Shown here one piece after another: positions 8,822 to 32,266 of a DNA stretch of 64,000 nucleotides. This DNA is from an uncultured Chloroflexia bacterium (GTDB lineage Bacteria; Chloroflexota; Limnocylindria; Limnocylindrales; CSP1-4). The stretch lies in NCBI GenBank assembly GCA_963752475.1, contig CAVVYR010000007.1:32001-96000 (forward strand), written 5' to 3'. Each line of letters starts with the position of its first letter. Position 1 is the first letter of the stretch. The notes beneath the pieces are model-generated. The model searched no databases. It saw only the letters and a program-made list of their open reading frames with translations, and was not told where the DNA came from. A program made the position numbers and the translations under genes.

Positions 8822-10282
8822 GTGATACCCGTTACCCGAACGCAGGTCCTCCTGCGCCCTGATGCCCGGCGGGTCGTCATCAAGCCCTTCATGCCCGGCG
8901 CCCACATTCCGTCGAATGGCCATAAGCGAGCCCGCCAGGTCATCGATCGGATCCTTGGCCTCTCAGGGGCTGAGGTGGCCTCCACGCTCACGTCTACGCT
9001 CACCCAGTTCGCCGCACGGCACCCCGACCTCCCTGGAGCACTACTGCGCAACTACGAGGCCGTAGCTGGACTCATCGAGGACGCTGATCGCCTCACCCAG
9101 GATCAGCGGGTGCTCATCGGTGCCTACTTCACGCACGAGTACGCGATCGAAGCCGCGGCGCTCTCGAACCCGTCCATCGTCCGGGCTCCCGACCAGACCG
9201 GCCTCGATGCCGGGGAGCAGCGCTTCGTCCTGAGCTTGCGGGCGATCGGGGAGGGGCACCTGTCCTCGATCGAGTTCCGCTCAGGCGTCATCGACACGAG
9301 CGGCTACATCACCCTCGAGCAGCCAAGCCGCTTCACGACGATCGGAGAGCGCCGCGAGCCGCTCTATCACCGCGATACCTTTGGCGCGAAACTCCGAGAG
9401 CTTGGGGTGCACAACGAGATCGCCGGCCTGGTGCTCGACCCCCTGCCGGCTCAATTCACGATCGTCCAGCTCGAAGCCGCCATCGCGGACCTGGACGAGC
9501 ATGGCGTGGACCGGGTCGTGGCATATGAGACCACGAGGATCATCCACTGGGTCGCTGCGTCGAACTACACCATCGAGTTTGCGGCCGAGTCGCAGATCTC
9601 CGAGCGGGTCATCTTCCCTTCCGGCCCGGCCGAGAGCCAGGGCATGGAAGACGCTCGTTTCGTTCGCTTCAGCCGCGACGATGGCACCGTCGTCTACTAC
9701 GCCATCTACACCGCCTTCGACGGCTTCGAGATCCTGCCGCAACTCATCGAGACGGCCGACTTCCGCATGTTCAAGGTCGCCACGCTCAATGGCGATGCCG
9801 CTCGCAACAAGGGCATGGCCCTGTTCCCGAGGATGATCGACGGGCGCTATGCCGCGCTCTCACGACAGGACAACGAGAGCAACTTCCTGATGCTCTCCGA
9901 CGATGTCCGATTCTGGCATGAGCCGATCCGGATCCAGCAGCCCGAGCAGCCCTGGGAGCTGATGCAGCTCGGCAATTGCGGTTCGCCGCTGGAGACCGAG
10001 GCAGGCTGGCTCGTGGTCACCCACGGGGTCGGTCCGATGCGCCGCTACGCGCTGGGGGCGATCCTCCTCGACCTTGACGATCCGCGGCAGGTCATCGGTC
10101 ATCTCGAAGAGCCGCTGCTGGCGCCGAACGAGGCGGAACGCGACGGGTACGTGCCCAACGTCGTCTACTCGTGCGGCAGCCTGATCCATGGCGACGACCT
10201 CGTGATCCCGTACGGCTTCTCCGACCTCGGAAGTGGCATCGCGGCCATCCCGCTCGCGGATATCCTCGAGCGGCTTACCTGA
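8822..10282 (+). CDS. Glycoside hydrolase family 130 protein (long form)
   Basis: YFTHEYAIEAAALSNPS, SLRAIGEGHLSSIEFR, GMEDARFV, NKGMALFPR, GNCGSPLET, THGVGPMR, REGYVPNVVY-like RDGYVPNVVYSCG. Confidence 0.92.
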   Translation: MIPVTRTQVLLRPDARRVVIKPFMPGAHIPSNGHKRARQVIDRILGLSGAEVASTLTSTLTQFAARHPDLPGALLRNYEAVAGLIEDADRLTQDQRVLIGAYFTHEYAIEAAALSNPSIVRAPDQTGLDAGEQRFVLSLRAIGEGHLSSIEFRSGVIDTSGYITLEQPSRFTTIGERREPLYHRDTFGAKLRELGVHNEIAGLVLDPLPAQFTIVQLEAAIADLDEHGVDRVVAYETTRIIHWVAASNYTIEFAAESQISERVIFPSGPAESQGMEDARFVRFSRDDGTVVYYAIYTAFDGFEILPQLIETADFRMFKVATLNGDAARNKGMALFPRMIDGRYAALSRQDNESNFLMLSDDVRFWHEPIRIQQPEQPWELMQLGNCGSPLETEAGWLVVTHGVGPMRRYALGAILLDLDDPRQVIGHLEEPLLAPNEAERDGYVPNVVYSCGSLIHGDDLVIPYGFSDLGSGIAAIPLADILERLT

Positions 10283-11354
10283 CCGCCCGGCTTCCGGCCA
10301 GCCGGTGCTGGGCGATGACCTGCCGATAGACGTCGAGATAGGCATCGACCATCCGGTCAAGGTCGAAGCGCTGCTCAACCGAGGCGCGCACCGCTCGCCG
10401 ATCGATGTCGGCGCAGGAGTGGACGGCGGCTACGGCTTCATCGAGGCCACGCACCAAGTACCCGCCTTCTCCATGGCGCACGATCTCCGGCATCGATCCC
10501 CGGGCATTGGCGATAACGGGGGTGCCGCAGGCCATGGCCTCGACCACGCTGTAACCGAAGGGCTCCTCGAAGTCGATGAGGTGCAGCAGTGCCCGTGCCC
10601 CCGCGAGCAGGTCGGCGCGAGCCTCGGGCCCGATGGGACCGATGTATCTGACCCGCTCTCCGTCGAGCCGCGGCTCAACCAGGCGCTCGAAGTACTCGTG
10701 GTCTTGGATGATGCCCGCGATGATCAGCGGCAGCCCAGTCCGCTCGGCGACGTCGATGGCGGTAGCGGTGCCCTTGTCGGGGTGGATCCGGCCGAAGAAC
10801 AGCAGATACGTGCCCGCCGCCGAACGCGCCTCGAATGCGGCCAAGTCGATGCCGTGGTGGATGGTGGCGACGTAGTGAAGCCGCGCATGTCGGTCCGCCT
10901 CGCTGATCGCAACGTAGTGGCCCCGCTCGTCGTACTTCTCATAGACGGCCACGATGCGTTCCGATGAGAAGCCGTGGATGGTCGTGACGACCGGCGTCTC
11001 CACCAGTCCGCTGTAGGTGAGTGGCAGGAAGTCGAAGCTGTTGTGGATCAGGTCGAACTCGCCGGCGCGCTCGAAGAGCGCAGCGATGTGCAGGCTCTCC
11101 GCGACCTTGGGGTCGAGCGAGGGATCCTCGGAGTACCCACGCGGGACGCAGGCACTGAGTCGAGCACTCGTGATCGAGTCGGCCGTGGCGAACAGAGTGA
11201 CATCCACGCCGCGGCTGACGAGACCCTCTGTCAAGAGCGACACGAATTGCTCCCAGGGACCGTAGTGACGTGGCGGTACCCGCCACGAGATGGGGGCGAG
11301 CATGGCGACCCGGAGGGGGCTATCCACGGTTGCCTGCGTGTCTGATCGAGGCAC
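10275..11354 (-). CDS. Glycosyltransferase family 4 protein
   Basis: APISWRVPPRHYGPWE, FFGRIHPDKG, EEPFGYSVVEAMACGTPVI. Confidence 0.93.
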   Translation of the reverse strand: MPRSDTQATVDSPLRVAMLAPISWRVPPRHYGPWEQFVSLLTEGLVSRGVDVTLFATADSITSARLSACVPRGYSEDPSLDPKVAESLHIAALFERAGEFDLIHNSFDFLPLTYSGLVETPVVTTIHGFSSERIVAVYEKYDERGHYVAISEADRHARLHYVATIHHGIDLAAFEARSAAGTYLLFFGRIHPDKGTATAIDVAERTGLPLIIAGIIQDHEYFERLVEPRLDGERVRYIGPIGPEARADLLAGARALLHLIDFEEPFGYSVVEAMACGTPVIANARGSMPEIVRHGEGGYLVRGLDEAVAAVHSCADIDRRAVRASVEQRFDLDRMVDAYLDVYRQVIAQHRLAGSRAVR

Positions 11355-11407
11355 GTCGCGGCGACCTCATCGCGGCGTCGATCGTGCCCCCTCGCGGCCG
11401 GCCGCCA

Positions 11408-12508
11408 TCAGGCCACGGCTCCGAAGGCCTCACGCGATCTCGGGGTCGAATGCGCGCTTCGAGCCCGCAGGTCGCGGGTGTGCTCAAGAGCGATGAGCCA
11501 CATCAGCGTGGATTCGGCTCCCTGGTTGCGGCTGACGCCAGCCGGACCGATGCCGTCAGCACCGGCGCCCGATGTCGGATCGGCGACGGGTGCGTGGGCA
11601 TCGTTGCGACCCAGGAACCAGCCATAGGCGGACTCCACGGCATCGCGGTAGCGTGGGTCGGCGGTCTCCTCGAACGCGGTCTCGGCCGCGAGGAGCATCG
11701 TCGTCGTGGAGATCGGTTGCTGGTCGTAGCGAGCCACCCATCCACCTCGCGGCCACCAGCCCGCGTTGCCCACGGTCCGCAGATCCCCGTGCGCGCCCAT
11801 CTGCGCATCGATGAGCCAGTCAAGGACGTGCAATCCGGCCTGGACCATACGTGGGCGCCTCAGCCGGCGACCGGCGACGATCAGGGCCTGCGGCAGTAGC
11901 TCGTTCTCGTACGTGACCAACGCCTCCGGCCAGGGCCAGTCGGTGTCGGATTCGCAGCGGGCAAAGGACTTCCACAGGTCGTTCGCCACCCGCTGGTAGA
12001 CGTCGGCCATCACATCGGACCCTCTTGTGCGGGCCACCGCTTCGCAGGCCAGGATCACCGTCGCCTGTGGCCGCAGCGAGCTGACGCGGCTCGCGGTCGA
12101 GAACGAGCGCTCGAACAATGCCGAGGCGTCGTCGCGCACGGTGCCAGCAGGGGCCGACGCGATGACCTCGGCAAGCGCCTGCAAGGCCCGCGCGTTGGCA
12201 TCCTCCGATCCGGGAAGGTCCAGCCAGGCACCATCCCATCGCCGGAGGTTGCGGAAACGGCCGGTCGAGCTCTCGAATGCTTGGGCCAGGAATCTCACGT
12301 TCCGCTCGGCGCTCGCGACGACAGCTGACCAGCCGAGCTGGCGGTGGTGCAACAGATCGACCATCAGGGCCCGTGCCACGTCATCGGTGCAGTAGCCGTG
12401 GCTCGGGTCCGGCTGGGCACCGTGCGCGTGCTGCATGATCCCGATCTCGGTGGTCAGGATGTCGAGATGATGACGACTGACCGGGAACAGCGGGAAGAGT
12501 TCAGGCAC
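11408..12508 (-). CDS. GT4-associated alpha/alpha-barrel (six-hairpin glycosidase-like) protein
   Basis: GIMQHA..AQPD.SHGYCTDDVARAL, WPWPE..VTYEN, YDQQPI, WFLGRND, NQGAESTL; GTG start overlaps upstream stop (GTGCCTGA). Confidence 0.85.
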   Translation of the reverse strand: MPELFPLFPVSRHHLDILTTEIGIMQHAHGAQPDPSHGYCTDDVARALMVDLLHHRQLGWSAVVASAERNVRFLAQAFESSTGRFRNLRRWDGAWLDLPGSEDANARALQALAEVIASAPAGTVRDDASALFERSFSTASRVSSLRPQATVILACEAVARTRGSDVMADVYQRVANDLWKSFARCESDTDWPWPEALVTYENELLPQALIVAGRRLRRPRMVQAGLHVLDWLIDAQMGAHGDLRTVGNAGWWPRGGWVARYDQQPISTTTMLLAAETAFEETADPRYRDAVESAYGWFLGRNDAHAPVADPTSGAGADGIGPAGVSRNQGAESTLMWLIALEHTRDLRARSAHSTPRSREAFGAVA

Positions 12509-13760
12509 CCTGCACAGCCGGCGCTGGGAGGCCCAGGACGGCCATATTGCTCGGTGCCACCTGCGGTCGTCTGAAGAGTCGCTCGTAGTCCGCTGCGACT
12601 CGGGACCAGAGCATGCTCCGTCCGTGAAGGTAGGCACGCTGCGCCATCGCGGCACGGAGGCCGTGGTCCTGGAGCAACTCGATGAGTGCGTCGGCCATGG
12701 CACCCGGGTCGCCCGGCGGTACCAGTCGGCCGCGTCCATCCGCGAGGATCTCGGAGGCGTAGAGATAGGGGGTGGATACCGTCGCCTTGCCGGCGGCCAT
12801 CGCGTAGGAGAGCGTCCCCGAGACGATCTGGTCGAGGTTCGGATACGGCGTCACGAACACGTCTGCCGCTTCCAGCCATCGACTCAGCTCGTGCTGACTC
12901 ACGAAGCGATCGACGAAGACGACGTGCTTGCTCATGCCCAGGTCGGCCGCCAGGGTCTCGAGCAGGGTCCGGTAGCGCTCGCCTTCGGTCCGCTGGAGCT
13001 CAGGATGCGTGGCTCCAAGGATGACGTAGCGGGCGTTTGGCACCGCACGCACCACATCGGGCATGGTTTCGATGACCGACTCATAGCCCTTGCTCGGCCC
13101 GACCAGCCCGAAGCTGAGAAGGAGCTGGCGGCCGCCCATGCCAAGTCCCGCCTTCACGCTGTCGGGGTCGACGAAGGGCAGATCAGGCACACCATGGGGG
13201 ATGATCTCCACGCGGCTCGGATCGGCGGCGTAGCGGTCGACCAGGATCCTGGCTGCGGCCGACGACATCACGACCGTAGCTGCGGTGGCATCAAGGATGC
13301 CCCGCATCACTCGACGCTGCCCGACGGTCGGGTGGCGCAGCACTGTGTGCAGTGTCGCTACCGCCGGCATGGAGAGCGCGGCCAGGAAGTCGAGGACGCC
13401 CTCGCCGTCGTTCCTGCCCCAGATGCCGTACTCGTGCTGCACGGAGACCGCGCTGACGCCGCACTCGCCGAGTGAACGGGCGGCACGGGCATAGTCGGCA
13501 CGAACATCGGTCCGGATGACGTGATGGACCGGGTGGGTCATCGCCAACGTGGGACCAGGGCTGTTGAGGGCCACGATCTCACCCTCCCCGAGAGCCCGCT
13601 CGAGGTCAGCTGTGAACGTGGCGATGCCGCAGCGTCGTGGTGGATAGGTGGAGACAAGCGCGATAGGTGCCACCGAGGCCCTGCTAGCGTCCCGCGCGCC
13701 GCGCGGGGTCGGGGCCGACGACAGATCGATGCTTCGACTTCCGACCTGTCGTGAAACCAT
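12501..13760 (-). CDS. Glycosyltransferase family 4 protein (start uncertain)
   Basis: STYPPRRCGIATFT, QHEYGIWG, IPHGVPD, FGLVGPSKGYE, TPYPNLDQIVSGTLSYA. Confidence 0.93.
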   Translation of the reverse strand: MVSRQVGSRSIDLSSAPTPRGARDASRASVAPIALVSTYPPRRCGIATFTADLERALGEGEIVALNSPGPTLAMTHPVHHVIRTDVRADYARAARSLGECGVSAVSVQHEYGIWGRNDGEGVLDFLAALSMPAVATLHTVLRHPTVGQRRVMRGILDATAATVVMSSAAARILVDRYAADPSRVEIIPHGVPDLPFVDPDSVKAGLGMGGRQLLLSFGLVGPSKGYESVIETMPDVVRAVPNARYVILGATHPELQRTEGERYRTLLETLAADLGMSKHVVFVDRFVSQHELSRWLEAADVFVTPYPNLDQIVSGTLSYAMAAGKATVSTPYLYASEILADGRGRLVPPGDPGAMADALIELLQDHGLRAAMAQRAYLHGRSMLWSRVAADYERLFRRPQVAPSNMAVLGLPAPAVQGA

Positions 13761-14158
13761 GTTGCACCTTGGTCAAGCAGACGGCGATCGACCACGGCCA
13801 AGCAGAACGGCGCGTCGTGCGCTTCGGGTCGTCAGCGACCCGGCGAAGCTCGGCCTCCTCTGCGATTTCAACGATGCGCGCGATCACAGGCTTTGTCAAT
13901 CGCTCCAGAAGCCTCATCTCGCGGGCCGCCACCCACCCTGAGCGTGAAATGGCCCCTTCGGGCGCACTGGAGTGGTCTCTCTCGTCCCGTCGCATGTACC
14001 GAGTTGGTCGCCGTTGGGTACGGTCCACAGCCCGATGCCGTCGTTGGCGAGTCCGACCACGATGCCGGCCGCTCGCGAGCCGCGGCCAACTACGCGGCCA
14101 TACCGCGGAGGGGCCCATTCCGAGGCTGTCTTCTGTGCCAGCGATGTTGCGACCCCAC

Positions 14159-15406
14159 TCACGTATCGGACTCCTGGTGGACGACCTCTGGGCCCGCAGC
14201 GAGGCGGTCTCCACAGACGACGTAGAGTGCCCCACGACCACTGACGATCCACGCCAAGCCATCCGGACCGACGCGGAGGTCAAGGGCGCCCCGTCCGGAA
14301 TCGGGGATCTTGACACGGTAGAAGTCGGCGCCGTCGTAGACGTGCAGGCCGATGCCATAGACCGAGAACCAGACCCGGCCATCAGGGTCGACCGTGATGA
14401 TGTTCGGCGCAGTGGGATCCCAACCGGTCCAGACGTCAAGCCTCCCTTGCGGCATCCCTTGTTCCGGGCCGATGGCCGACCATGTGCCCTCGTCGTACCG
14501 CAGGAGCACGTACTCACCTGGCCGGTTGTCGTGAAGCCTGCGATCCGCGATCGCCCAGAGCGATCCATCCGGGCCGACCGAGAGTCCGAGCACCCTGGGT
14601 ACCTCGGCGGTTCCGATCTCGTCGCCACTCCAGCCTGCTTCGTCGTACGTGGCGATACCGCCGGGGCGGTATCCACGATCGATGCCCAGCCATACTCGCC
14701 CGTCGGTCGTGCGCGCGAAGTCGTAGTGACCCGCACCGCCGGCGAGGGGCTCCTCGAGACCGACCGACTCGGAGGACACCCAGGCTTCCCCCTCCAGCTT
14801 GACGATTTCACTCGTTCGATCCCGGGAACGTGTGACACGCCACACGGAACCATCGTCCAGCGTTCCTACCGAGTGCCCGGCGCTGCGCATGCCACCCGAA
14901 CGATCGACCCAACGTCCATCCTCGGCCACCACGGTCGAGCCGCCATCCTCCACGGCCCAGAGCTCGCCCCATGGCGCGAGATGGAGGAAGCGGACGAACG
15001 AACGCCAGCCGTCGGTCCTCGGCACGATCGCGCCCGGCTCGCCAAGCTCGATGACTCGACGTCCCTGCGCGACCACGATGGTCCCGTCGCTGCCGACCTC
15101 GACCTCGCGGATCCGACCACCATCGAATCGGTGGCCGGCCTGATCGGCGATCACCTGCAGGACGCCAGGCCCGACGGCCTTGGTCACCAGCCCCTCCTGC
15201 ACCTCACATATCGGTGATGGGCTAGTGGCCGATGCGCCGGGGTCGATGCCGGCGACATCGGCCGGGGCAGCCAGCAGAGCGATGACCACCAGCGCGCTGC
15301 CCGTGAGGAGAGCGCGGCGTGGTGAGGCGGCGCGCGGTAGTCGTGATGCGAGACCGTGCCCAGGCAAAGGGAGAACAACGCGCACATCCGGTCGATGCGA
15401 CGTCAT
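14159..15406 (-). CDS. Exported beta-propeller-repeat protein (two-component-regulator-propeller-like repeats)
   Basis: Hydrophobic segment LLTGSALVVIALLAAPA; repeated [VI]..DG.[VL]W blades (GPDGSLWA, DPDGRVWF, GPDGLAWI). Confidence 0.75.
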   Translation of the reverse strand: MTSHRPDVRVVLPLPGHGLASRLPRAASPRRALLTGSALVVIALLAAPADVAGIDPGASATSPSPICEVQEGLVTKAVGPGVLQVIADQAGHRFDGGRIREVEVGSDGTIVVAQGRRVIELGEPGAIVPRTDGWRSFVRFLHLAPWGELWAVEDGGSTVVAEDGRWVDRSGGMRSAGHSVGTLDDGSVWRVTRSRDRTSEIVKLEGEAWVSSESVGLEEPLAGGAGHYDFARTTDGRVWLGIDRGYRPGGIATYDEAGWSGDEIGTAEVPRVLGLSVGPDGSLWAIADRRLHDNRPGEYVLLRYDEGTWSAIGPEQGMPQGRLDVWTGWDPTAPNIITVDPDGRVWFSVYGIGLHVYDGADFYRVKIPDSGRGALDLRVGPDGLAWIVSGRGALYVVCGDRLAAGPEVVHQESDT

Positions 15407-15433
15407 CGGCGTGAGACCTCGAGGCCAGGGCCG

Positions 15434-15487
15434 CGCTCAAGGCCCCACTGGTCGGAATGCGCACCGCTGGATCCAGAGGTAAATGTA
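15434..15487 (-). promoter_or_regulatory. Conserved promoter/leader motif copy A
   Basis: Minus strand TACATT-N16-GGTGCGCATTCCGACCAGTGGGGCCTTGAGCG, then GAGGT SD and ATG 15406. Confidence 0.8.
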
Positions 15488-15565
15488 GTCCCTGGTATCC
15501 GCGCATGCGGTCAACGAACCGTGGATGGCCGGTGTCGTTTCCGATATCTCCAGCGCCGCAGCGCG

Positions 15566-15754
15566 TCAGAAGCCCGGCGGTGACTCGATCACGAGCCACG
15601 CGAGCAAGGCCACGACGGCCGCCATCGCGATGGCCGCGATGAGCGCCGCGCGTCCGTTGCTGCCGGAATCATCATCGTGGTCGGGCTCGGGTTGGACTTC
15701 CCAGCGTGGGTCGTCCTCGAACTGGTCTAGCCGATGGTCAGTGCGCATGGTCAT
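15566..15754 (-). CDS. Small single-TM membrane protein, last gene of the PASTA operon
   Basis: Acidic N-terminus, TM AALIAAIAMAAVVALLAWLVI; ATGA overlap with upstream stop. Confidence 0.7.
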   Translation of the reverse strand: MTMRTDHRLDQFEDDPRWEVQPEPDHDDDSGSNGRAALIAAIAMAAVVALLAWLVIESPPGF

Positions 15755-16179
15755 CTGCCTCGCTTCTTCAAGATGCTCCTCGCTGGTGCGCCGAGCGGTC
15801 GCAGTCGGACGACGTGTGGCGAGAGCGCGCGTCTGCGAGCACCTCCTGATCGCTCATCCGCGTCATCCCTGGCGAGACGCACGGCTTGAGCGTCGGGGGC
15901 CTCCGTCGGCGCCGACGAGCGAGATGGTGCTTCCGCCACGAGAACGTGGATCCGCCAGAGCTGCTTCAGGTGTGTCCCGGGGGAAGGCGATTGCGCGACG
16001 ATGACGCCCCAGGGTTCACGAGTGCGGACGACGCGCGTCGCGTTGACGCTGGTGCCGGCCCATGCCGCCGCCGCGAGCGCGTCGGCGAGGCCAAGCCCGA
16101 TCAGGTCAGGGACGACCGTCGTCGTGGCCGGCGCCGGTGCGGCTGGAGCCCTGCTCGTGTCGTGCGCGAGCTCAGTCAC
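15751..16179 (-). CDS. PASTA-domain protein (one domain, no signal peptide or TM)
   Basis: VVPDLIGLGLADA...GVIVAQSPSPGT.L.....IHVLV; GTG start overlaps upstream TGA. Confidence 0.75.
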   Translation of the reverse strand: MTELAHDTSRAPAAPAPATTTVVPDLIGLGLADALAAAAWAGTSVNATRVVRTREPWGVIVAQSPSPGTHLKQLWRIHVLVAEAPSRSSAPTEAPDAQAVRLARDDADERSGGARRRALSPHVVRLRPLGAPARSILKKRGR

Positions 16180-16730
16180 TTGCCGATCGATCTGACGCGG
16201 TCGATCGACGACGGGTTCTTCTCTGCGAGTCGCGCCAGGGTCAGCGCCACGACCGACCCGTCCGTGAGCAGCGTGCCTGCAGACGGGTGAGTCGACACGA
16301 TGTGGCCAGCCGGCACGCTCCTCGACGCACGCCGCCCCTTGACCAGCGGCACGAAGCCCAGCCAACACAGCAGCTCGAGCGCGGCTTCGAGCGGCAGCCC
16401 CCGGACGTCCGGGACCGGTGCGAGCGGCCGACCGGAGACGATGACGCGGATCCTCCCGCCTCGCCGTACACGCGTGCCGGCTTCAGGTCGCTGGTCGACC
16501 ACCAAGCCCCATGGCCCGATCGTGGTCTCCCACACCGAGACGGACAGCCGAACGCCAGCCATCCTGGCCGCGGCGTGTGCTTCGAGTGCTGGAAGGCCAA
16601 CGAGATCCGGAGCGAGGCACGGCACACGTCCCGGCGAGTCGGTCTGACGGGCGGGGAGCTCCAGCGCGGGACCGGGGGAGAGTCCCTCGTCCGCCGGGCC
16701 CGGGATGAAGATGCGGTCGCCGGTGATCAC
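16176..16730 (-). CDS. PASTA-domain protein (two domains, no signal peptide or TM)
   Basis: APDLVGL...VVDQRPEAGTRV..GGRIRVIVS and VPDVRGLPLEAA...SVPAGHIVSTHPSAGT.L..GS.VALT. Confidence 0.85.
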   Translation of the reverse strand: MITGDRIFIPGPADEGLSPGPALELPARQTDSPGRVPCLAPDLVGLPALEAHAAARMAGVRLSVSVWETTIGPWGLVVDQRPEAGTRVRRGGRIRVIVSGRPLAPVPDVRGLPLEAALELLCWLGFVPLVKGRRASRSVPAGHIVSTHPSAGTLLTDGSVVALTLARLAEKNPSSIDRVRSIGK

Positions 16731-17008
16731 GGGTGCCGTGGGCGACCGGATCGCCGCAAGGCCGCATCGAGTGCTCTTCGCATCCGTGTTCGATCCGATG
16801 GGGATCGCCCGTAGACGGCGGGGACGTCGACAGGCGATGTGGTCGCCGCGCTGGTGAGACCCGGGACGGGGACCTCTCCAGCCCGGCGTCGCTCAGCCGC
16901 CGCCCTCGCCTCCAGGCGTCGCACGGCACGAGATCGCGTCGCAGACGCATCGCGACCTCCCTCGACCGGTGCCTGCGGGCTGCTGGGTGGAAGTTGGCCG
17001 CCGCTCAC
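16727..17008 (-). CDS. Hypothetical Arg/Ala/Pro-rich protein within the PASTA operon
   Basis: Exactly fills the gap with 4-bp GTGA overlaps at both ends; no recognisable domain. Confidence 0.5.
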   Translation of the reverse strand: MSGGQLPPSSPQAPVEGGRDASATRSRAVRRLEARAAAERRRAGEVPVPGLTSAATTSPVDVPAVYGRSPSDRTRMRRALDAALRRSGRPRHP

Positions 17009-17445
17009 GCCAGTGTCTCCATGGGTCGGCCAGAGCGGAAGAGCGTATCGACGACATCGTGGTCGACATAGGCACCGGGCTTCGTGCGCTTGCGTGGCTC
17101 GCCCGGAAGCACCTCATAGTCGATGCGAGATCCGGCCGAGACCAACGACCCGACTCGAGGGTTCGTCCGGATGACGACCTCGGAGCGACCAGACACCGGT
17201 CGCGGTGCCGGGTCGCGGCGACCTGGCACGAGTCCCGCAGCAACGAAGTCCGCACGGGCCTCACTCTCGGTGCTCAGCACCACGTCGGGGACGCGGACGT
17301 GCGAGCGGGCGGCGACGCCGCGCGTGACCGTGTCGTCGTCGGCGTTCACTCCACCAGCTGAACCGAGGCTCGCATCGCCTGTCATGGGGATGGGTTCGGC
17401 GGGTGCGCCGAACAAGACAGACACATCAACCCGATGCGTCGCCAT
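17005..17445 (-). CDS. PASTA-domain protein (one domain)
   Basis: VRVPDVV..TESEARA...AGL...VVIRTNPRVGSLVSAGSRIDYEV. Confidence 0.75.
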   Translation of the reverse strand: MATHRVDVSVLFGAPAEPIPMTGDASLGSAGGVNADDDTVTRGVAARSHVRVPDVVLSTESEARADFVAAGLVPGRRDPAPRPVSGRSEVVIRTNPRVGSLVSAGSRIDYEVLPGEPRKRTKPGAYVDHDVVDTLFRSGRPMETLA

Positions 17446-17472
17446 CAGCCGGAACCTCGAACATCGTGGTGT

Positions 17473-17526
17473 CGCTCAAGGCCCCAGGTGGTCGGAGTGC
17501 GCACCGCGTCTTCGCGCCGGAATGTA
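17473..17526 (-). promoter_or_regulatory. Conserved promoter/leader motif copy B
   Basis: Minus strand TACATT-N15-GGTGCGCACTCCGACCACCTGGGGCCTTGAGCG, then GAGGT SD and ATG 17445. Confidence 0.8.
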
Positions 17527-17646
17527 CACCCGGCGGTGGCCCGCGGATGCGTAACGATGCGTGTCGACTCGATTGCGGAACCTTAACCAACCGAGGACCC
17601 GCCGGCTCGTCGTCTCCTGAGGTCCCCGTGGGTTCCGATTTGGGTA

Positions 17647-17722
17647 TTGCGTTCCTCTGTCGAAGGTCGTACATTCCCGCGCACGATCGTGGTGCGCAGT
17701 CCGACCGCAGTGGCCTTGAGCG
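17647..17722 (+). promoter_or_regulatory. Sigma70-like promoter plus conserved leader motif copy C
   Basis: TTGCGT-N17-TACATT-N15-GGTGCGCAGTCCGACCGCAGTGGCCTTGAGCG, then GAGGT SD and ATG 17749. Confidence 0.8.
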
Positions 17723-17748
17723 CCACCACGACGATGAGGTCACGGCCG

Positions 17749-18369
17749 ATGTGGCGCACCTTCTCCACCGCACATGGTGGCTGTTTCCCCCTGCACGGAG
17801 ACCCTGGACCTGCGTTCCCCGCCACTCATCATCACGGGACGCGCGAGGAGTCGTTGAGCACACGGCCCACCCTCGGGTCGGTGACGGTTCCGGACCTCGT
17901 CGGCATGTCATCGCAGGATGCTCGACGCACGGCGCGATTGAGTGAGCTCGGTCTGTTCCTCGAGGAGAAGCCTGCCGACTCCGGCCTTCGCGGTCGTGTG
18001 ATCCGGCAGGACCCCGAACCGGGTACCCTCGCGCGACCCGGAGACGTCATCGACGCCCAGGTCGGAGGGAGGCCGGGAGTGGCCGTTCCCGATGTGCGCG
18101 GAGCTGACGAGCAGGACGCGCTGGTGTCGCTGCGCACGGCCGGTCTGACCCCGACTCGGCGTGTCGTACGACGGTCCAGCTCCGTCGCGCCAGGCCTCGT
18201 GATCCGTACTCGCCCCCGCGCCGGCACCGAGGTCCCGGTCGGGACCCGTGTCAGCTACGTGATCGCATCCGCGGCGCGCGAACGGGCATCCGCGAAGCGA
18301 GCGGCCAGGCGGTCACGGGTGCGATGGATCCCCGATGGGGCCTTCCTCTCCATGCCGGACCGGGAGTGA
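17749..18369 (+). CDS. PASTA-domain protein (two domains; alternative TTG start at 17854)
   Basis: VTVPDLVGMSSQDARR...GRVIRQDPEPGT and VAVPDVRG...SSVAPGLVIRTRPRAGTEVPVGTRVSYVI. Confidence 0.88.
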   Translation: MWRTFSTAHGGCFPLHGDPGPAFPATHHHGTREESLSTRPTLGSVTVPDLVGMSSQDARRTARLSELGLFLEEKPADSGLRGRVIRQDPEPGTLARPGDVIDAQVGGRPGVAVPDVRGADEQDALVSLRTAGLTPTRRVVRRSSSVAPGLVIRTRPRAGTEVPVGTRVSYVIASAARERASAKRAARRSRVRWIPDGAFLSMPDRE

Positions 18370-19188
18370 ACGCGCTGGCCGAGGCGGGTAGCGGCCGTCG
18401 GGTCGCGAGCACCTGGGACGAGGGCAGCGCGTACGAGTCGTTCATGGGGCGATGGAGCCGACTCATCGCAGCCAGCTTCGTGGAGTGGCTCGACATCGCG
18501 CCCGGTGGGATCTGGCTCGACGTGGGTTGTGGGACTGGAGCCCTCACCTCGGCGATCTGTGACATGGCCGACCCCGTCGCGGTCACCGGGATGGATGCAT
18601 CACCCGAGTTCGTCTCGCACGCGGCCGATCTCTCGTGCACCGACACGGCTAGCTACGTCGTGGGAGAGGCGTCGTCGATACCGTTCGTCGACGGCATCTT
18701 CGATGTCGCCGTGTCAGGACTCGTCCTCAACTTCCTGCCGGACCCGGTCGCGGCGCTCAACGAGCAATCGCGCGTCGTCGCCCCGTCCGGAACGATCGCC
18801 GCCTACGTCTGGGACTACGCCGAGGGGATGCGGCTGCTCCGCCACTTCTGGGATGTGGCGAGGCGGGTCGTCCCGTCGGCCGTCGCGCTTGATGAGGCAG
18901 TGCGCTTCACCAACTGCGACTCCCAGAGGTCTCGAGCGCATGTTCGAGGCTGCCGGGTTGGGCCCGGTGGCCACGACGACGCTGGAGACCGAGAGCACCT
19001 TCCGCGACTTCGACGAGCTCTGGGCCTCGTTCCTGTCTGGACAGGGGCCTGCGCCAGGGTTCGTCGCCACCCTTGACGATACCGATCGGGCGTCGCTCAG
19101 GGATGGCCTCGCGACGGTCTTGCCAGTGGGTTCGGACGGTTCGATCCGTCTTGCAGCACGGGCCTGGGCCATCCGCGCCAGCGCCTGA
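18366..19188 (+). CDS. Class I SAM-dependent methyltransferase (frameshift near 18920)
   Basis: YESFMGRWSR, WLDVGCGTGAL, FDVAVSGLVLNF, AAYVWDY; C-terminus GQGPAP...ARAWAIR in a second frame; GTGA overlap with the PASTA gene. Confidence 0.88.
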
Positions 19189-19252
19189 ACCATGGTCGTG
19201 AGTGCCGCGAGACGGCGCGTCGTGGATTGCGGATTCTTCATCGATGATCAGA

Positions 19253-19282
19253 TTGACAATCGCCTCCATTAGGCGTACACCT
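19253..19282 (+). promoter_or_regulatory. Probable sigma70 promoter of groESL
   Basis: TTGACA at 19253-19258, 17 bp to TACACC(T); -10 imperfect. Confidence 0.55.
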
Positions 19283-19288
19283 ACCGTC

Positions 19289-19315
19289 TTAGCACTCTCA
19301 TTGGTAGAGTGCTAA
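19289..19315 (+). promoter_or_regulatory. CIRCE element (HrcA operator)
   Basis: Perfect TTAGCACTC-N9-GAGTGCTAA upstream of groES. Confidence 0.97.
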
Positions 19316-19355
19316 TCGGCCCACCCGAGGGCTGGTATCCAGGAGGACACCTCAG

Positions 19356-21348
<1,993 letters not shown>

Positions 21349-21629
21349 CGGTTTCGAGCGCCCACGTCGCCGATCGACGGCTGTGGCGACCACGTTGATC
21401 CAGATCCCTGAGCCCATCGTCGAACACGTCGGGGTGGACGACCCCGGGACCGCTCACGGCGGAAGTCCTCGGCGGATGCCAGGCCCGCCCGTCCCAGGCG
21501 GTCTGGTGACACGCGTGCGAGCGCCCGTCGTTCCGCCGACGAAGGTTCGACGCATCGGCATGAGGCCATCGGGGCCCAGCATCCGTTGAGATCGCCGGGT
21601 CTTCGGCGGTAGTCGAAGGGACTGGACCG

Positions 21630-21842
21630 ATGGAGTATCGAGCCATCTCAGTGCCGTGGTTGCATGAGACTGAGCAGCGAGAGGCGCCGGGCATCTACCG
21701 GGCAACGAGGCACGAGGCTGCCGTCAACGAACTCGCTCGTGACGGGTGGGAGTTGGCGACGACCACGTATCTGCCCGACGCTGATCGTGCCGGCATGGGC
21801 CGGATCATGATGTTCTTCAAGCGACCGCTTCGAACGAACTAG
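21630..21842 (+). CDS. DUF4177-like small protein
   Basis: MEYR...VNELARDGWEL...FFKRP pattern. Confidence 0.7.
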   Translation: MEYRAISVPWLHETEQREAPGIYRATRHEAAVNELARDGWELATTTYLPDADRAGMGRIMMFFKRPLRTN

Positions 21843-21893
21843 GCGTTCTAGCTCTGGCGCCACTCGACCACCCGGAGCATCGGTTTGGTGCCT

Positions 21894-21921
21894 TGCGTCT
21901 GGCTCTCGCCGGGCGCGCCAT
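21894..21921 (+). repeat. 28-bp direct repeat copy 2; tRNA-3'-end-like att scar candidate
   Basis: TGCGTCTGGCTCTCGCCGGGCGCGCCAT, 27/28 identical to 4073-4100. Confidence 0.7.
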
Positions 21922-22089
21922 TCCCCCTTGGCGTCTTGTCCGCGCCTCTGGCCTCCGCGTCGCACAGCGGGCAGACGCGTCTCCGGCGGGTCGGTTTCGA
22001 GGTGACAGGGCAGGTCGCTATCGCTACGATCGAGTCGGCACATCAGCCCGCCGATCCTGCGGGGCAGCGAAGCCTTAGGGGAGAGAACG

Positions 22090-31873: not shown

Positions 31874-32266
31874 TCAGTCCGCCCGAACCACTTCGACGTC
31901 GTAAGCGTCAAGGGCGTCGTCGACCGTCACGAGGGGCACGCCCTCCAACTGGGCTTGTGCGATGAGGAGCCGATCGAACGGATCGCTGTGATGACGCGGC
32001 AATGTCGCGACCTGCAGGGCGTGGGAGTGCGTCACCGCCAGCGGCTCGACACTCGTGCGCTGCATCCTGGACGGGACATACGTCGCCGGTGGCTCCGGGA
32101 GCGACAGACGGCCGACAGCCCACTTGATGGCGATCTCCCACGACGTCGCCGCGGACAGCAGCAGCGTGGTCCGGTTCGCTGCAAGCTCGGCCAACAGGTC
32201 TGGGCGGATCCGGTCGGGGTCACCCAGCATCCACAGCCAGACACGCGTATCGAGCAGGTACCTCAA
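31874..32266 (-). CDS. vapC: VapC PIN-domain toxin
   Basis: YLLDTRVWLW, SAATSWEIAIK, LPRHHSDPFDRLLIAQA. Confidence 0.93.
   Translation of the reverse strand: MRYLLDTRVWLWMLGDPDRIRPDLLAELAANRTTLLLSAATSWEIAIKWAVGRLSLPEPPATYVPSRMQRTSVEPLAVTHSHALQVATLPRHHSDPFDRLLIAQAQLEGVPLVTVDDALDAYDVEVVRAD

Follow-up and report, generated by a model that had tools for sequence, protein, structure and literature searches.

A leader-associated cassette of small PASTA proteins lacking recognizable export signals in a Limnocylindrales genus

PASTA domains are classically extracytoplasmic modules of PknB-type kinases and penicillin-binding proteins (PBPs), in which they sense muropeptides and lipid II and can bind beta-lactams. 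A 64,000-nucleotide (nt) stretch of DNA from an uncultured Chloroflexia bacterium (positions 32,001 to 96,000 of contig CAVVYR010000007.1; here, the window) raises the question of what such domains do in small proteins that show neither an export signal nor a kinase or transpeptidase domain. The window lies on contig C7 of a 4.25-Mb draft genome (G000; 38 contigs, 88.8% complete, 5.8% contamination), with a G+C content of ~67-70% around the locus. It holds three units, each behind one copy of the same leader: the minus-strand genes A-B-C-D-E, the divergent plus-strand pair formed by F and a methyltransferase gene, and the minus-strand gene H. A sequence-only reading of the window had proposed that the PASTA proteins A, C, D and F form a cytoplasmic system, anchored by the small membrane protein E and coregulated by a leader motif. 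We conclude that the locus is in all probability an expanded copy of a genus-restricted, leader-controlled cassette of conserved small proteins. That the cassette acts as a leader-gated envelope module, in which the PASTA proteins bind their ligand on the cytoplasmic side, is a tentative reading, possible though short of probable, and the evidence for it and for its rivals is weighed below.

PASTA proteins and the search for export signals

All four PASTA genes named by the sequence-only reading exceeded the Pfam PF03793 gathering cut-off of 23.2 bits, with six domains in total. Two domains each are present in C, a protein of 184 amino acids (aa) encoded at 16176..16730 on the minus strand (81 bits), and in F (206 aa; 17749..18369, plus strand; 84.9 bits). 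One domain each is present in A (146 aa; 17005..17445, minus strand; 27.1 bits) and in D (142 aa; 15751..16179, minus strand; 32.4 bits), where the domain (PWGV..AQSPSPG) is accompanied by a basic C-terminal tail; a D-like protein of the related genome G005 scored 30.6 bits. Pfam returned no Pkinase and no Transpeptidase (PF00905) match in A to F, and the NCBIfam Stk1/PknB kinase model NF033483 aligned through its PASTA part only, at 14.6-68.9 bits against a cut-off of 450. A role as a defence system was considered and rejected, as PADLOC matched only the PASTA part of PD-T4-6 kinase models and, for the methyltransferase, mad2.

A PASTA domain is a compact alpha/beta unit of ~65 residues, in which a single helix packs against three to four strands of sheet, and it is frequently found in tandem. 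The fold of C is predicted with confidence. In the AlphaFold model (predicted local distance difference test [pLDDT] 80.7), residues 1-31 are disordered, the two PASTA domains have pLDDT values above 90, and a disordered C-terminal tail follows; the N-terminal tail is hydrophilic. The 27 best Foldseek matches of this model (E<=0.001) were PASTA structures. The leading ones came from PknB, PrkC and PBP2x, the best being PASTA domains 1-2 of Mycobacterium tuberculosis PknB (5e10; E 2.9e-9), and comparison with single PknB PASTA domains (3ouv) gave a target TM-score of 0.87. The model of A is of low confidence (pLDDT 58).

Export signals were judged by the best 19-residue Kyte-Doolittle mean, a cruder measure than SignalP or DeepTMHMM. 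By this measure, no hydrophobic export signal or membrane segment was found in A, C, D or F, which thus depart from the classical placement of PASTA domains behind a signal peptide or transmembrane segment: the maxima were 0.88 for A, 1.71 for C (at position 112, within its second PASTA domain), 1.52 for D and 0.73 for F, with 0.65 for B, and two positive controls, E and H, reached 2.89 (position 38) and 2.01 (position 33). Together with the Pfam results, these values bear out the claim that the PASTA proteins carry no signal, transmembrane helix, kinase or transpeptidase domain. Export signals were also looked for in homologs, and an N-terminal hydrophobic peak was present in 0 of 33 C family members, that is, in neither C nor any of its 32 close homologs, by the same measure.

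These homologs, retrieved by database search, are 137-197 aa long (E 2e-86 to 1e-32) with PASTA as their sole Pfam domain, and one of them, 57% identical to C, was deposited as 'Candidatus Limnocylindrales bacterium', an order of Chloroflexota. Nineteen aligned homologs share one start methionine and a hydrophilic tail, M..[DE]R..IPG..DEG..., and the family carries the signature VSVWET.(V/I)GPWG, which is unusual, rich in tryptophan and outside the requirements of the Pfam model. No longer protein exceeded 37% identity to C, and no homolog above this level was fused to a kinase or other domain; we thus found no fused form of the C family. D has orthologs in two relatives, 57% identical in G005 and 72% identical over 61 aa in G013, each joined to C by a GTGA overlap. 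F has the N-terminal motif MWRTF.T.HGG and a conserved C-terminal tail, R.PDG.FL..P..E; its ortholog in G005 is 53% identical and keeps the GTGA overlap to the methyltransferase gene, and the pair behind a leader was found in G000 and G005 only. A search of genome contigs with F gave only remote PASTA proteins of unrelated phyla, at 28-38% identity and with no synteny.

The genome was also checked for PknB and peptidoglycan synthesis. It encodes a PknB-type PASTA kinase of 607 aa with a hydrophobic segment at residue 327 and four PBP transpeptidases, all of them outside this locus, as well as MraY-type transferases. There are 63 PASTA matches in the genome, an unusual expansion: at 317512-327197 of contig C8 lie giant PASTA-repeat genes encoding proteins of 1270 and 1518 aa, the larger of which is acidic at its N-terminus and becomes hydrophobic over a segment near residue 138, and open frames with PASTA repeats in relatives reach 3812 aa. 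Because the PknB kinase and the 1518-aa protein do carry membrane-like segments, the missing signals of A, C, D and F are not an artefact of the gene calls of this genome. A cytoplasmic location of the four proteins is the default inference from an absent signal, and it is in this qualified sense that we use it.

The PASTA proteins may instead be extracytoplasmic after all, reaching and binding peptidoglycan by a route without an N-terminal signal. E or the conserved termini of A might assist them, for example, a partner that bears a signal might carry them along, or lysis might release them. The structures returned by the fold search come from PknB and PrkC ectodomains and PBPs, which are extracytoplasmic; the interchangeable payload H (see below) consists of a membrane segment followed by a propeller; and 5 of 14 remote small PASTA-only proteins from other phyla have N-terminal hydrophobic peaks of 2.0-2.9 at residues 1-15. 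Such peaks are absent from all C family members, however; the N-terminal tail of C itself is predicted to be disordered and hydrophilic; no secretion-system gene was found in the cassette at any locus read; and the other PASTA proteins of the genome have ordinary membrane segments. We regard export as unlikely on balance. The YxxxD-like C-terminus of A bears a resemblance to a type VII secretion signal, an idea that was considered and dropped.

Another way to recover a signal would be a start codon further upstream than the one assigned, encoding a missed signal peptide, and longer forms do appear in the open reading frame (ORF) listing for D (from 16368, 205 aa) and F (from 17647, 240 aa). 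Neither extension is hydrophobic, and in both the G+C content at the third codon position (GC3) is noncoding in pattern (0.57 in the D extension; only 0.50 at codon position 1 in the F extension). The F extension moreover runs across the conserved leader, whose indels are not multiples of three, and the C homologs align at one start methionine in 19 sequences. The conserved leader with its Shine-Dalgarno sequence and the GC3 pattern thus support the shorter starts of D and F, and we consider missed upstream starts extremely improbable.

Gene junctions and integrity of the locus

The five minus-strand ORFs are joined as the sequence-only reading described, by 4-bp RTGA overlaps read directly from the sequence: GTGA at A/B (17005-17008), B/C (16727-16730) and C/D (16176-16179), and ATGA at D/E (15751-15754). 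The divergent gene F is coupled alike to the S-adenosylmethionine (SAM)-dependent methyltransferase gene, by GTGA at 18366-18369 with the GTG start at 18366. An RTGA overlap alone is not rare, since any TGA stop after A or G, roughly half of TGA stops at this base composition, will provide it. The coupling gains its meaning from relatives in which the 4-bp overlaps are repeated: G005 has them at C/D, D/E and F/methyltransferase, G013 between an A-C fusion and D, and G022 and G054 at A/B and B/C. Synteny in related genomes accordingly extends to the genes, their overlaps and the leader, all of which recur in the genus.

The overlaps might be frameshifts within one long gene, and this was examined in a public DNA run, X1, an independent assembly that covers 15429-19300 and differs from the window by scattered single-nucleotide polymorphisms. 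Its contigs span A/B, B/C, C/D and D/E without any indel; the F/methyltransferase junction has only 9 bases on one side, where 31 on each side are needed, and is not bridged. The ORFs are therefore intact across four of five junctions in an independent assembly, and the fifth stands on the window sequence and its conservation in G005. In a salt-marsh run, X3, one low-depth contig joins 16113 to 16223, dropping 109 bases over the C/D junction, with 28 bases on the shorter side and 90% likeness; it probably reflects a relative with another C-D arrangement or a chance join.

Could the ORFs be decaying fragments of a former multi-PASTA gene, or assembly artefacts, and nonfunctional in either case? 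The genome is an incomplete draft bin with some contamination, the nearby methyltransferase gene is frameshifted, and giant PASTA-repeat genes exist in the genus, all of which would suit such an origin. Yet the small genes, their start positions and their overlaps recur in 16 genomes, each gene has non-PASTA tails and family-specific motifs, X1 shows no indels over four of five junctions, and C, D, E and F have the GC3 pattern typical of high-GC coding sequence. Decay or artefact is very improbable on this evidence. Contigs from two RNA libraries cover A/B, C, D, F and the methyltransferase gene in part, and the leaders not at all; they are a weak hint of expression, as DNA carry-over is possible and they provide no transcript ends.

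The leader and its cassette across the genus

A repeat search found three leader copies in the window, two direct and one inverted, all sense oriented and ending at the start codons of H, A and F. The copy before A (17419..17542, minus strand) matched the covariance model described below with 125.9 bits (E 6.5e-30); the copy before F (17654..17775, plus strand; 98.5 bits, E 1e-22) is divergent from it and corresponds to inverted repeats I2 and I6 of the repeat search; and the copy before H (15380..15503, minus strand) scored 91.3 bits (E 7.5e-21). The units begin 55-60 nt after an invariant RNA core, GGTGCGCASTCCGACC, which occurs 3 times in the window against 0.40 expected, a count reached by 1 of 100 shuffles, and which has no further occurrence elsewhere in the whole genome. 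The sequence-only reading had posited a common leader motif; three units do stand behind one leader, and the leader behaves as a structured RNA.

The covariance model was built from 12 copies, with the hairpin P1 left out of the search model. It found 23 matches in 16 of the 49 genomes of the genus, of which 22 are full length and one is partial and probably spurious, and outside the genus only 2 weak partial matches among 145 genomes, an order-level sample. Every full-length copy (22 of 22) has GAGG and then a start codon within the model. A search of 4227 Rfam families with window positions 12000-22000 gave no match at E<=1, and a guanidine-III (ykkC-III) riboswitch, suggested by the word GGUGCGC, was rejected on the same ground. 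In a metagenome scan, the core pattern recovered 120 stretches; because none of the 80 loci compared fits the covariance model, these are chance matches.

The RNA can be folded around its ribosome-binding site. In P1, the 5' strand GGUGCGC pairs with GCGC-x-ACC over 7 bp with one bulge, and the loop holds the near-invariant A.UCCGRCC and GGCCUUGA together with an anti-Shine-Dalgarno stretch, GGCCUUG. This stretch can pair with the ribosome-binding site CGAGGUC to form a pseudoknot of H-type geometry, with 1 nt between the helices and ~9 crossing back. A small hairpin, CCGAUG...CAUCGG, encloses the AUG; this constraint at the RNA level explains the shared opening codons, M-x-T-H-R, of otherwise different proteins. 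In the copy before A, the elements in order are TACATT, P1 (GGUGCGC/GCG-A-CACC), UCCGACC, GGCCUUG, the Shine-Dalgarno sequence GAGG, and the AUG at 17445 in its small hairpin.

Comparative analysis supports the pseudoknotted structure. Over the 23 sequences, 85.8% of its cells are paired, compared with 32-45% when the partners are slid; 8 of 22 pairs are changed on both sides, and the covariation score was reached by 0 of 500 shuffles. P1 alone is 89.6% paired. Compensation is seen at 3 of its 7 pairs, where G-C is replaced twice by C-G and once by A-U, and 12 of 500 shuffles have at least this many compensated pairs; as P1 was absent from the search model, the alignment did not favour it. An alternative helix, P1', in which GGUGCGC pairs with codons 3-4, excludes P1, and both RNAalifold and single-sequence folds prefer this nested form, with a long helix between the anti-Shine-Dalgarno and Shine-Dalgarno sequences. 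Two mutually exclusive folds around a hidden ribosome-binding site give the leader the look of a translational switch. The comparative evidence that it is a structured cis-regulatory RNA that hides the ribosome-binding site is suggestive, not conclusive.

Two further elements were considered near the leader. An invariant TACATT ~16 nt upstream of P1 may be a -10 element, and a promoter scan of the locus detected no sigma-70-type site. A terminator-like hairpin at 17420-17440 (minus strand), just inside A, has 9 pairs and a U-rich tail; as a helix it is 70.9% paired, but it was rejected for want of covariation, 340-488 of 500 shuffles being as high. Its sequence is conserved and shares the element CGCAUCG, which is able to pair with the AUG region.

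Across the genus, the leader is followed by an A-like first gene, in some genomes by a B-like second gene, and then by a payload. One type of payload is C, often with D and/or E; E follows C or D in G000, G005, G010, G044 and G059. The other is an H-like protein with a membrane segment and a Reg_prop-type propeller, found after leader-A-B in G049 and G014 and, in G022b, after a first ORF of the B-like type. C itself carries the leader-encoded N-terminus as a direct fusion in five genomes (G013, G024, G010, G001 and G044). A-like genes occur in 9 and B-like genes in 5 of the 49 genomes, always adjoining the leader.

In the window, the second type of payload is represented by H (415 aa; 14159..15406, minus strand), with a membrane segment and a beta-propeller-like region. 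It begins with the leader-encoded MTSHRPDV, followed by SPRRALL, the hydrophobic stretch near residue 33, and APADVAG; by eye, SPRRALL and the hydrophobic stretch resemble a twin-arginine-like signal or anchor. H gave weak Pfam matches to Reg_prop and Vgb_lyase, and the H-like protein of G049 matched Reg_prop with E 1.8e-8. Downstream of H on the same strand (10275-13760, minus) are two small ORFs, two GT4-type glycosyltransferase genes and a gene for a 366-aa protein without a family, which may belong to the leader-controlled unit of H.

Of 22 leader cassettes, 9 are followed on the same strand by a magnesium channel gene, mgtE, and the cassette may therefore have arisen in the leader region of mgtE. 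The gene is absent from 7 of the 22 with >=6 kb examined, all three window cassettes among them, and 6 are undecided, the flanking DNA being too short. The window genome has a fourth, weaker leader copy on contig C8 (~87558-89500, locus L049; 33 bits, E 1.4e-5). Behind it come one gene each of the A-like and B-like families, a 78-aa ORF and mgtE, and a signal-less two-PASTA gene points away from it. Between the C-E pair and mgtE in G010 (L017, 7938-9326) and G001 (L018, 7811-9199) is a gene for a 462-aa protein with several N-terminal hydrophobic stretches, judged by eye, and an alpha/beta-hydrolase (S33/S9-like) domain, which does not occur at the window locus.

The methyltransferase coupled to F (18366..19188, plus strand) is a class I SAM-dependent enzyme by its Methyltransf_11 match (E 1.6e-19; 70.8 bits against a cut-off of 21.2); no NCBIfam equivalog reached its cut-off, the best being the DVU_1556 family at 44.4 bits against 155. 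Relative to X1, the window has an extra base at 18914, so that the protein stops at 236 aa and the rest of its C-terminal region is encoded in another frame, that of the ORF 18505-19188. Without this base, the protein is 273 aa long, exactly like its ortholog in G005, to which it is identical at 172 of 273 positions. The gene is therefore frameshifted in this assembly only, owing to an error of assembly or to a frameshift peculiar to the strain.

Partner proteins and possible mechanisms

No Pfam, NCBIfam or PHROG family matched A, B or E, apart from the PASTA domain of A, and PHROGs returned nothing for 8 proteins. A had been read simply as a PASTA gene; its Pfam score supports this, and it is more exactly a member of an ~80-aa 'A-like' family, with N- and C-terminal motifs (MATHRxDV...; ...YVDxDxxDTL) between which PASTA is inserted. 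The family motifs are an N-terminal M.THR.DV, a central DVTVSEWTADL and a C-terminal GYVDFD..DSVHE. Run against 1.84 billion proteins, an A-like profile gave 43 representatives, of which 39 are 52-130 aa long; two of the matches, P0088 and P0089 (47% and 53% identical to A), have PASTA inserted as in the window. For the A-like protein encoded on contig C8, the ESM Atlas gave no usable match.

B (93 aa; 16727..17008, minus strand; B-like profile hidden Markov model [HMM]) had been listed as unknown. It indeed falls in none of the named databases, yet it belongs to a conserved arginine-rich B-like family with the motif ..P.PGGRD....RRLA.R.AA..RR.G...RRPR... An HMM trained without B ranked the B frame as the best nontraining match among 40,336 six-frame ORFs of the window genome (E 1.7e-5), and B is accordingly a real family member despite its odd GC3; in the genus search it scored 8e-20 once included in the profile.

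E (62 aa; 15566..15754, minus strand) was called a small membrane protein at the outset, and its hydropathy of 2.89 at residue 38 agrees. An acidic N-terminal part with an invariant DPRWE.QPEP precedes a single C-terminal hydrophobic segment of ~20 residues, conserved in the five aligned orthologs, and E is predicted from these features to cross the membrane once, by way of this C-terminal segment. A complex prediction for C with E scored 0.00, below the mark, with the verdict 'no answer'.

How might these parts work together? In the mechanism that we put forward tentatively, a cue, whether a metabolite or a protein, would open the folded leader and switch translation on. The PASTA proteins would then build up on the cytoplasmic face of the membrane, where E may tether them, and would bind a precursor that bears a stem peptide, such as UDP-MurNAc-peptide, lipid I/II of the inner leaflet, or a similar ligand. 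Binding would buffer the supply of precursor or report on it. Where a cassette copy has the other payload, this switch would yield a membrane-anchored beta-propeller sensor. A more specific version, in which the leader is a new class of riboswitch that senses an envelope metabolite or cation, with intracellular PASTA proteins that bind precursors and have A, B and E as partners, appears doubtful to us.

Several observations weigh against this mechanism. Hydropathy windows are cruder than SignalP, and nonclassical export exists. The alternative payload H is membrane anchored with an apparently extracytoplasmic propeller, and PASTA domains and propellers typically face outside. The orientation of E is ambiguous, with an acidic N-terminal tail and one arginine per flank in 4 of 5 orthologs, and the ligand of the PASTA proteins is putative. 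A and B, confined to 9 and 5 of the 49 genomes, respectively, are not required for the leader-C core, and the GC3 of B is atypical. For the leader, P1' is as well paired as P1 (92.1%), although it hardly covaries, with one compensated pair; single-sequence fold z-scores of five copies (-2.62, -0.01, -2.62, -1.56 and -0.14) go only modestly beyond shuffles; and the covariation comes from 22 full-length sequences of one genus, whose relatedness inflates shuffle tests.

The PASTA fold could also serve as a protein-protein adaptor without a peptidoglycan ligand, in a small regulatory or assembly complex in which C, D and F would bind short motifs of A, B and E, and F might bind the methyltransferase. 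A and E are mostly disordered, and their invariant motifs (TVSEWTADL and GYVDFDxxDSVHE in A; DPRWE.QPEP in E) look like peptide ligands. The A-C fusions in five genomes and the PASTA domain inside A in the window, P0088 and P0089 are in keeping with such contacts, as is the unusual tryptophan-rich signature of the C family beyond the Pfam model. On the other hand, many leader-C cassettes lack A and B, and binding among the A to F proteins is putative. We regard an adaptor role as somewhat unlikely, and retain the leader-gated envelope module as our tentative reading.

Comparison with known systems and significance

Tandem PASTA domains are common in the ectodomains of the PknB, PrkC and Stk1 kinases, and C superposes on PknB PASTA, but the proteins of this locus, at 142-206 aa, lack a kinase domain and a membrane segment. 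With the class B PBPs (PBP2x, Staphylococcus aureus PBP1 and SpoVD) they share the PASTA fold, and F has a weak match to the SpoVD tail (4.4e-4), but neither a transpeptidase domain nor a membrane anchor. Given the absence of these three features, the locus proteins do not belong to the PknB/Stk1 kinase or PBP families. Similar in layout are small PASTA-only proteins such as P0038 (Latescibacterota) and P0045 (Longimicrobiales), which are likewise short and consist of PASTA domains alone; these are at most 34-38% identical to C, 5 of 14 start with a hydrophobic stretch, unlike the C and F families, and no link between them and the leader is known.

In the SAM-II, preQ1-II and guanidine-III riboswitches, an H-type pseudoknot conceals the Shine-Dalgarno sequence. 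The leader resembles them in its short 5' untranslated region, a conserved loop that pairs with the ribosome-binding site, and an alternative pairing. It differs in having no Rfam match, in its occurrence in one genus only among the genomes searched, and in that its ligand is putative; it may equally be operated by a protein or a small RNA.

PASTA is treated as extracytoplasmic in PMC7159879, bioRxiv 10.1101/2021.02.01.429150 and PMC6428115. The literature within reach, to which most subscription journals did not belong, held no account of signal-less PASTA-only proteins or of this leader.

A conserved family of signal-less PASTA-only proteins would point either to a second, intracellular use of the fold or to an export route that predictors miss. 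Should the doubtful riboswitch version above prove true, the cassette would represent the first PASTA system to signal or buffer in the cytoplasm. Compact and testable, the leader is a candidate for a new translational RNA switch. The regulon that it defines is small and coherent, taking in PASTA proteins, a beta-propeller sensor and a methyltransferase, joined by mgtE in 9 of 22 copies. The locus adds two small protein families, A-like and B-like, that are currently without annotation, and it may open a direct way to study how the envelope is regulated in a lineage of soils and sediments that has no cultured model.

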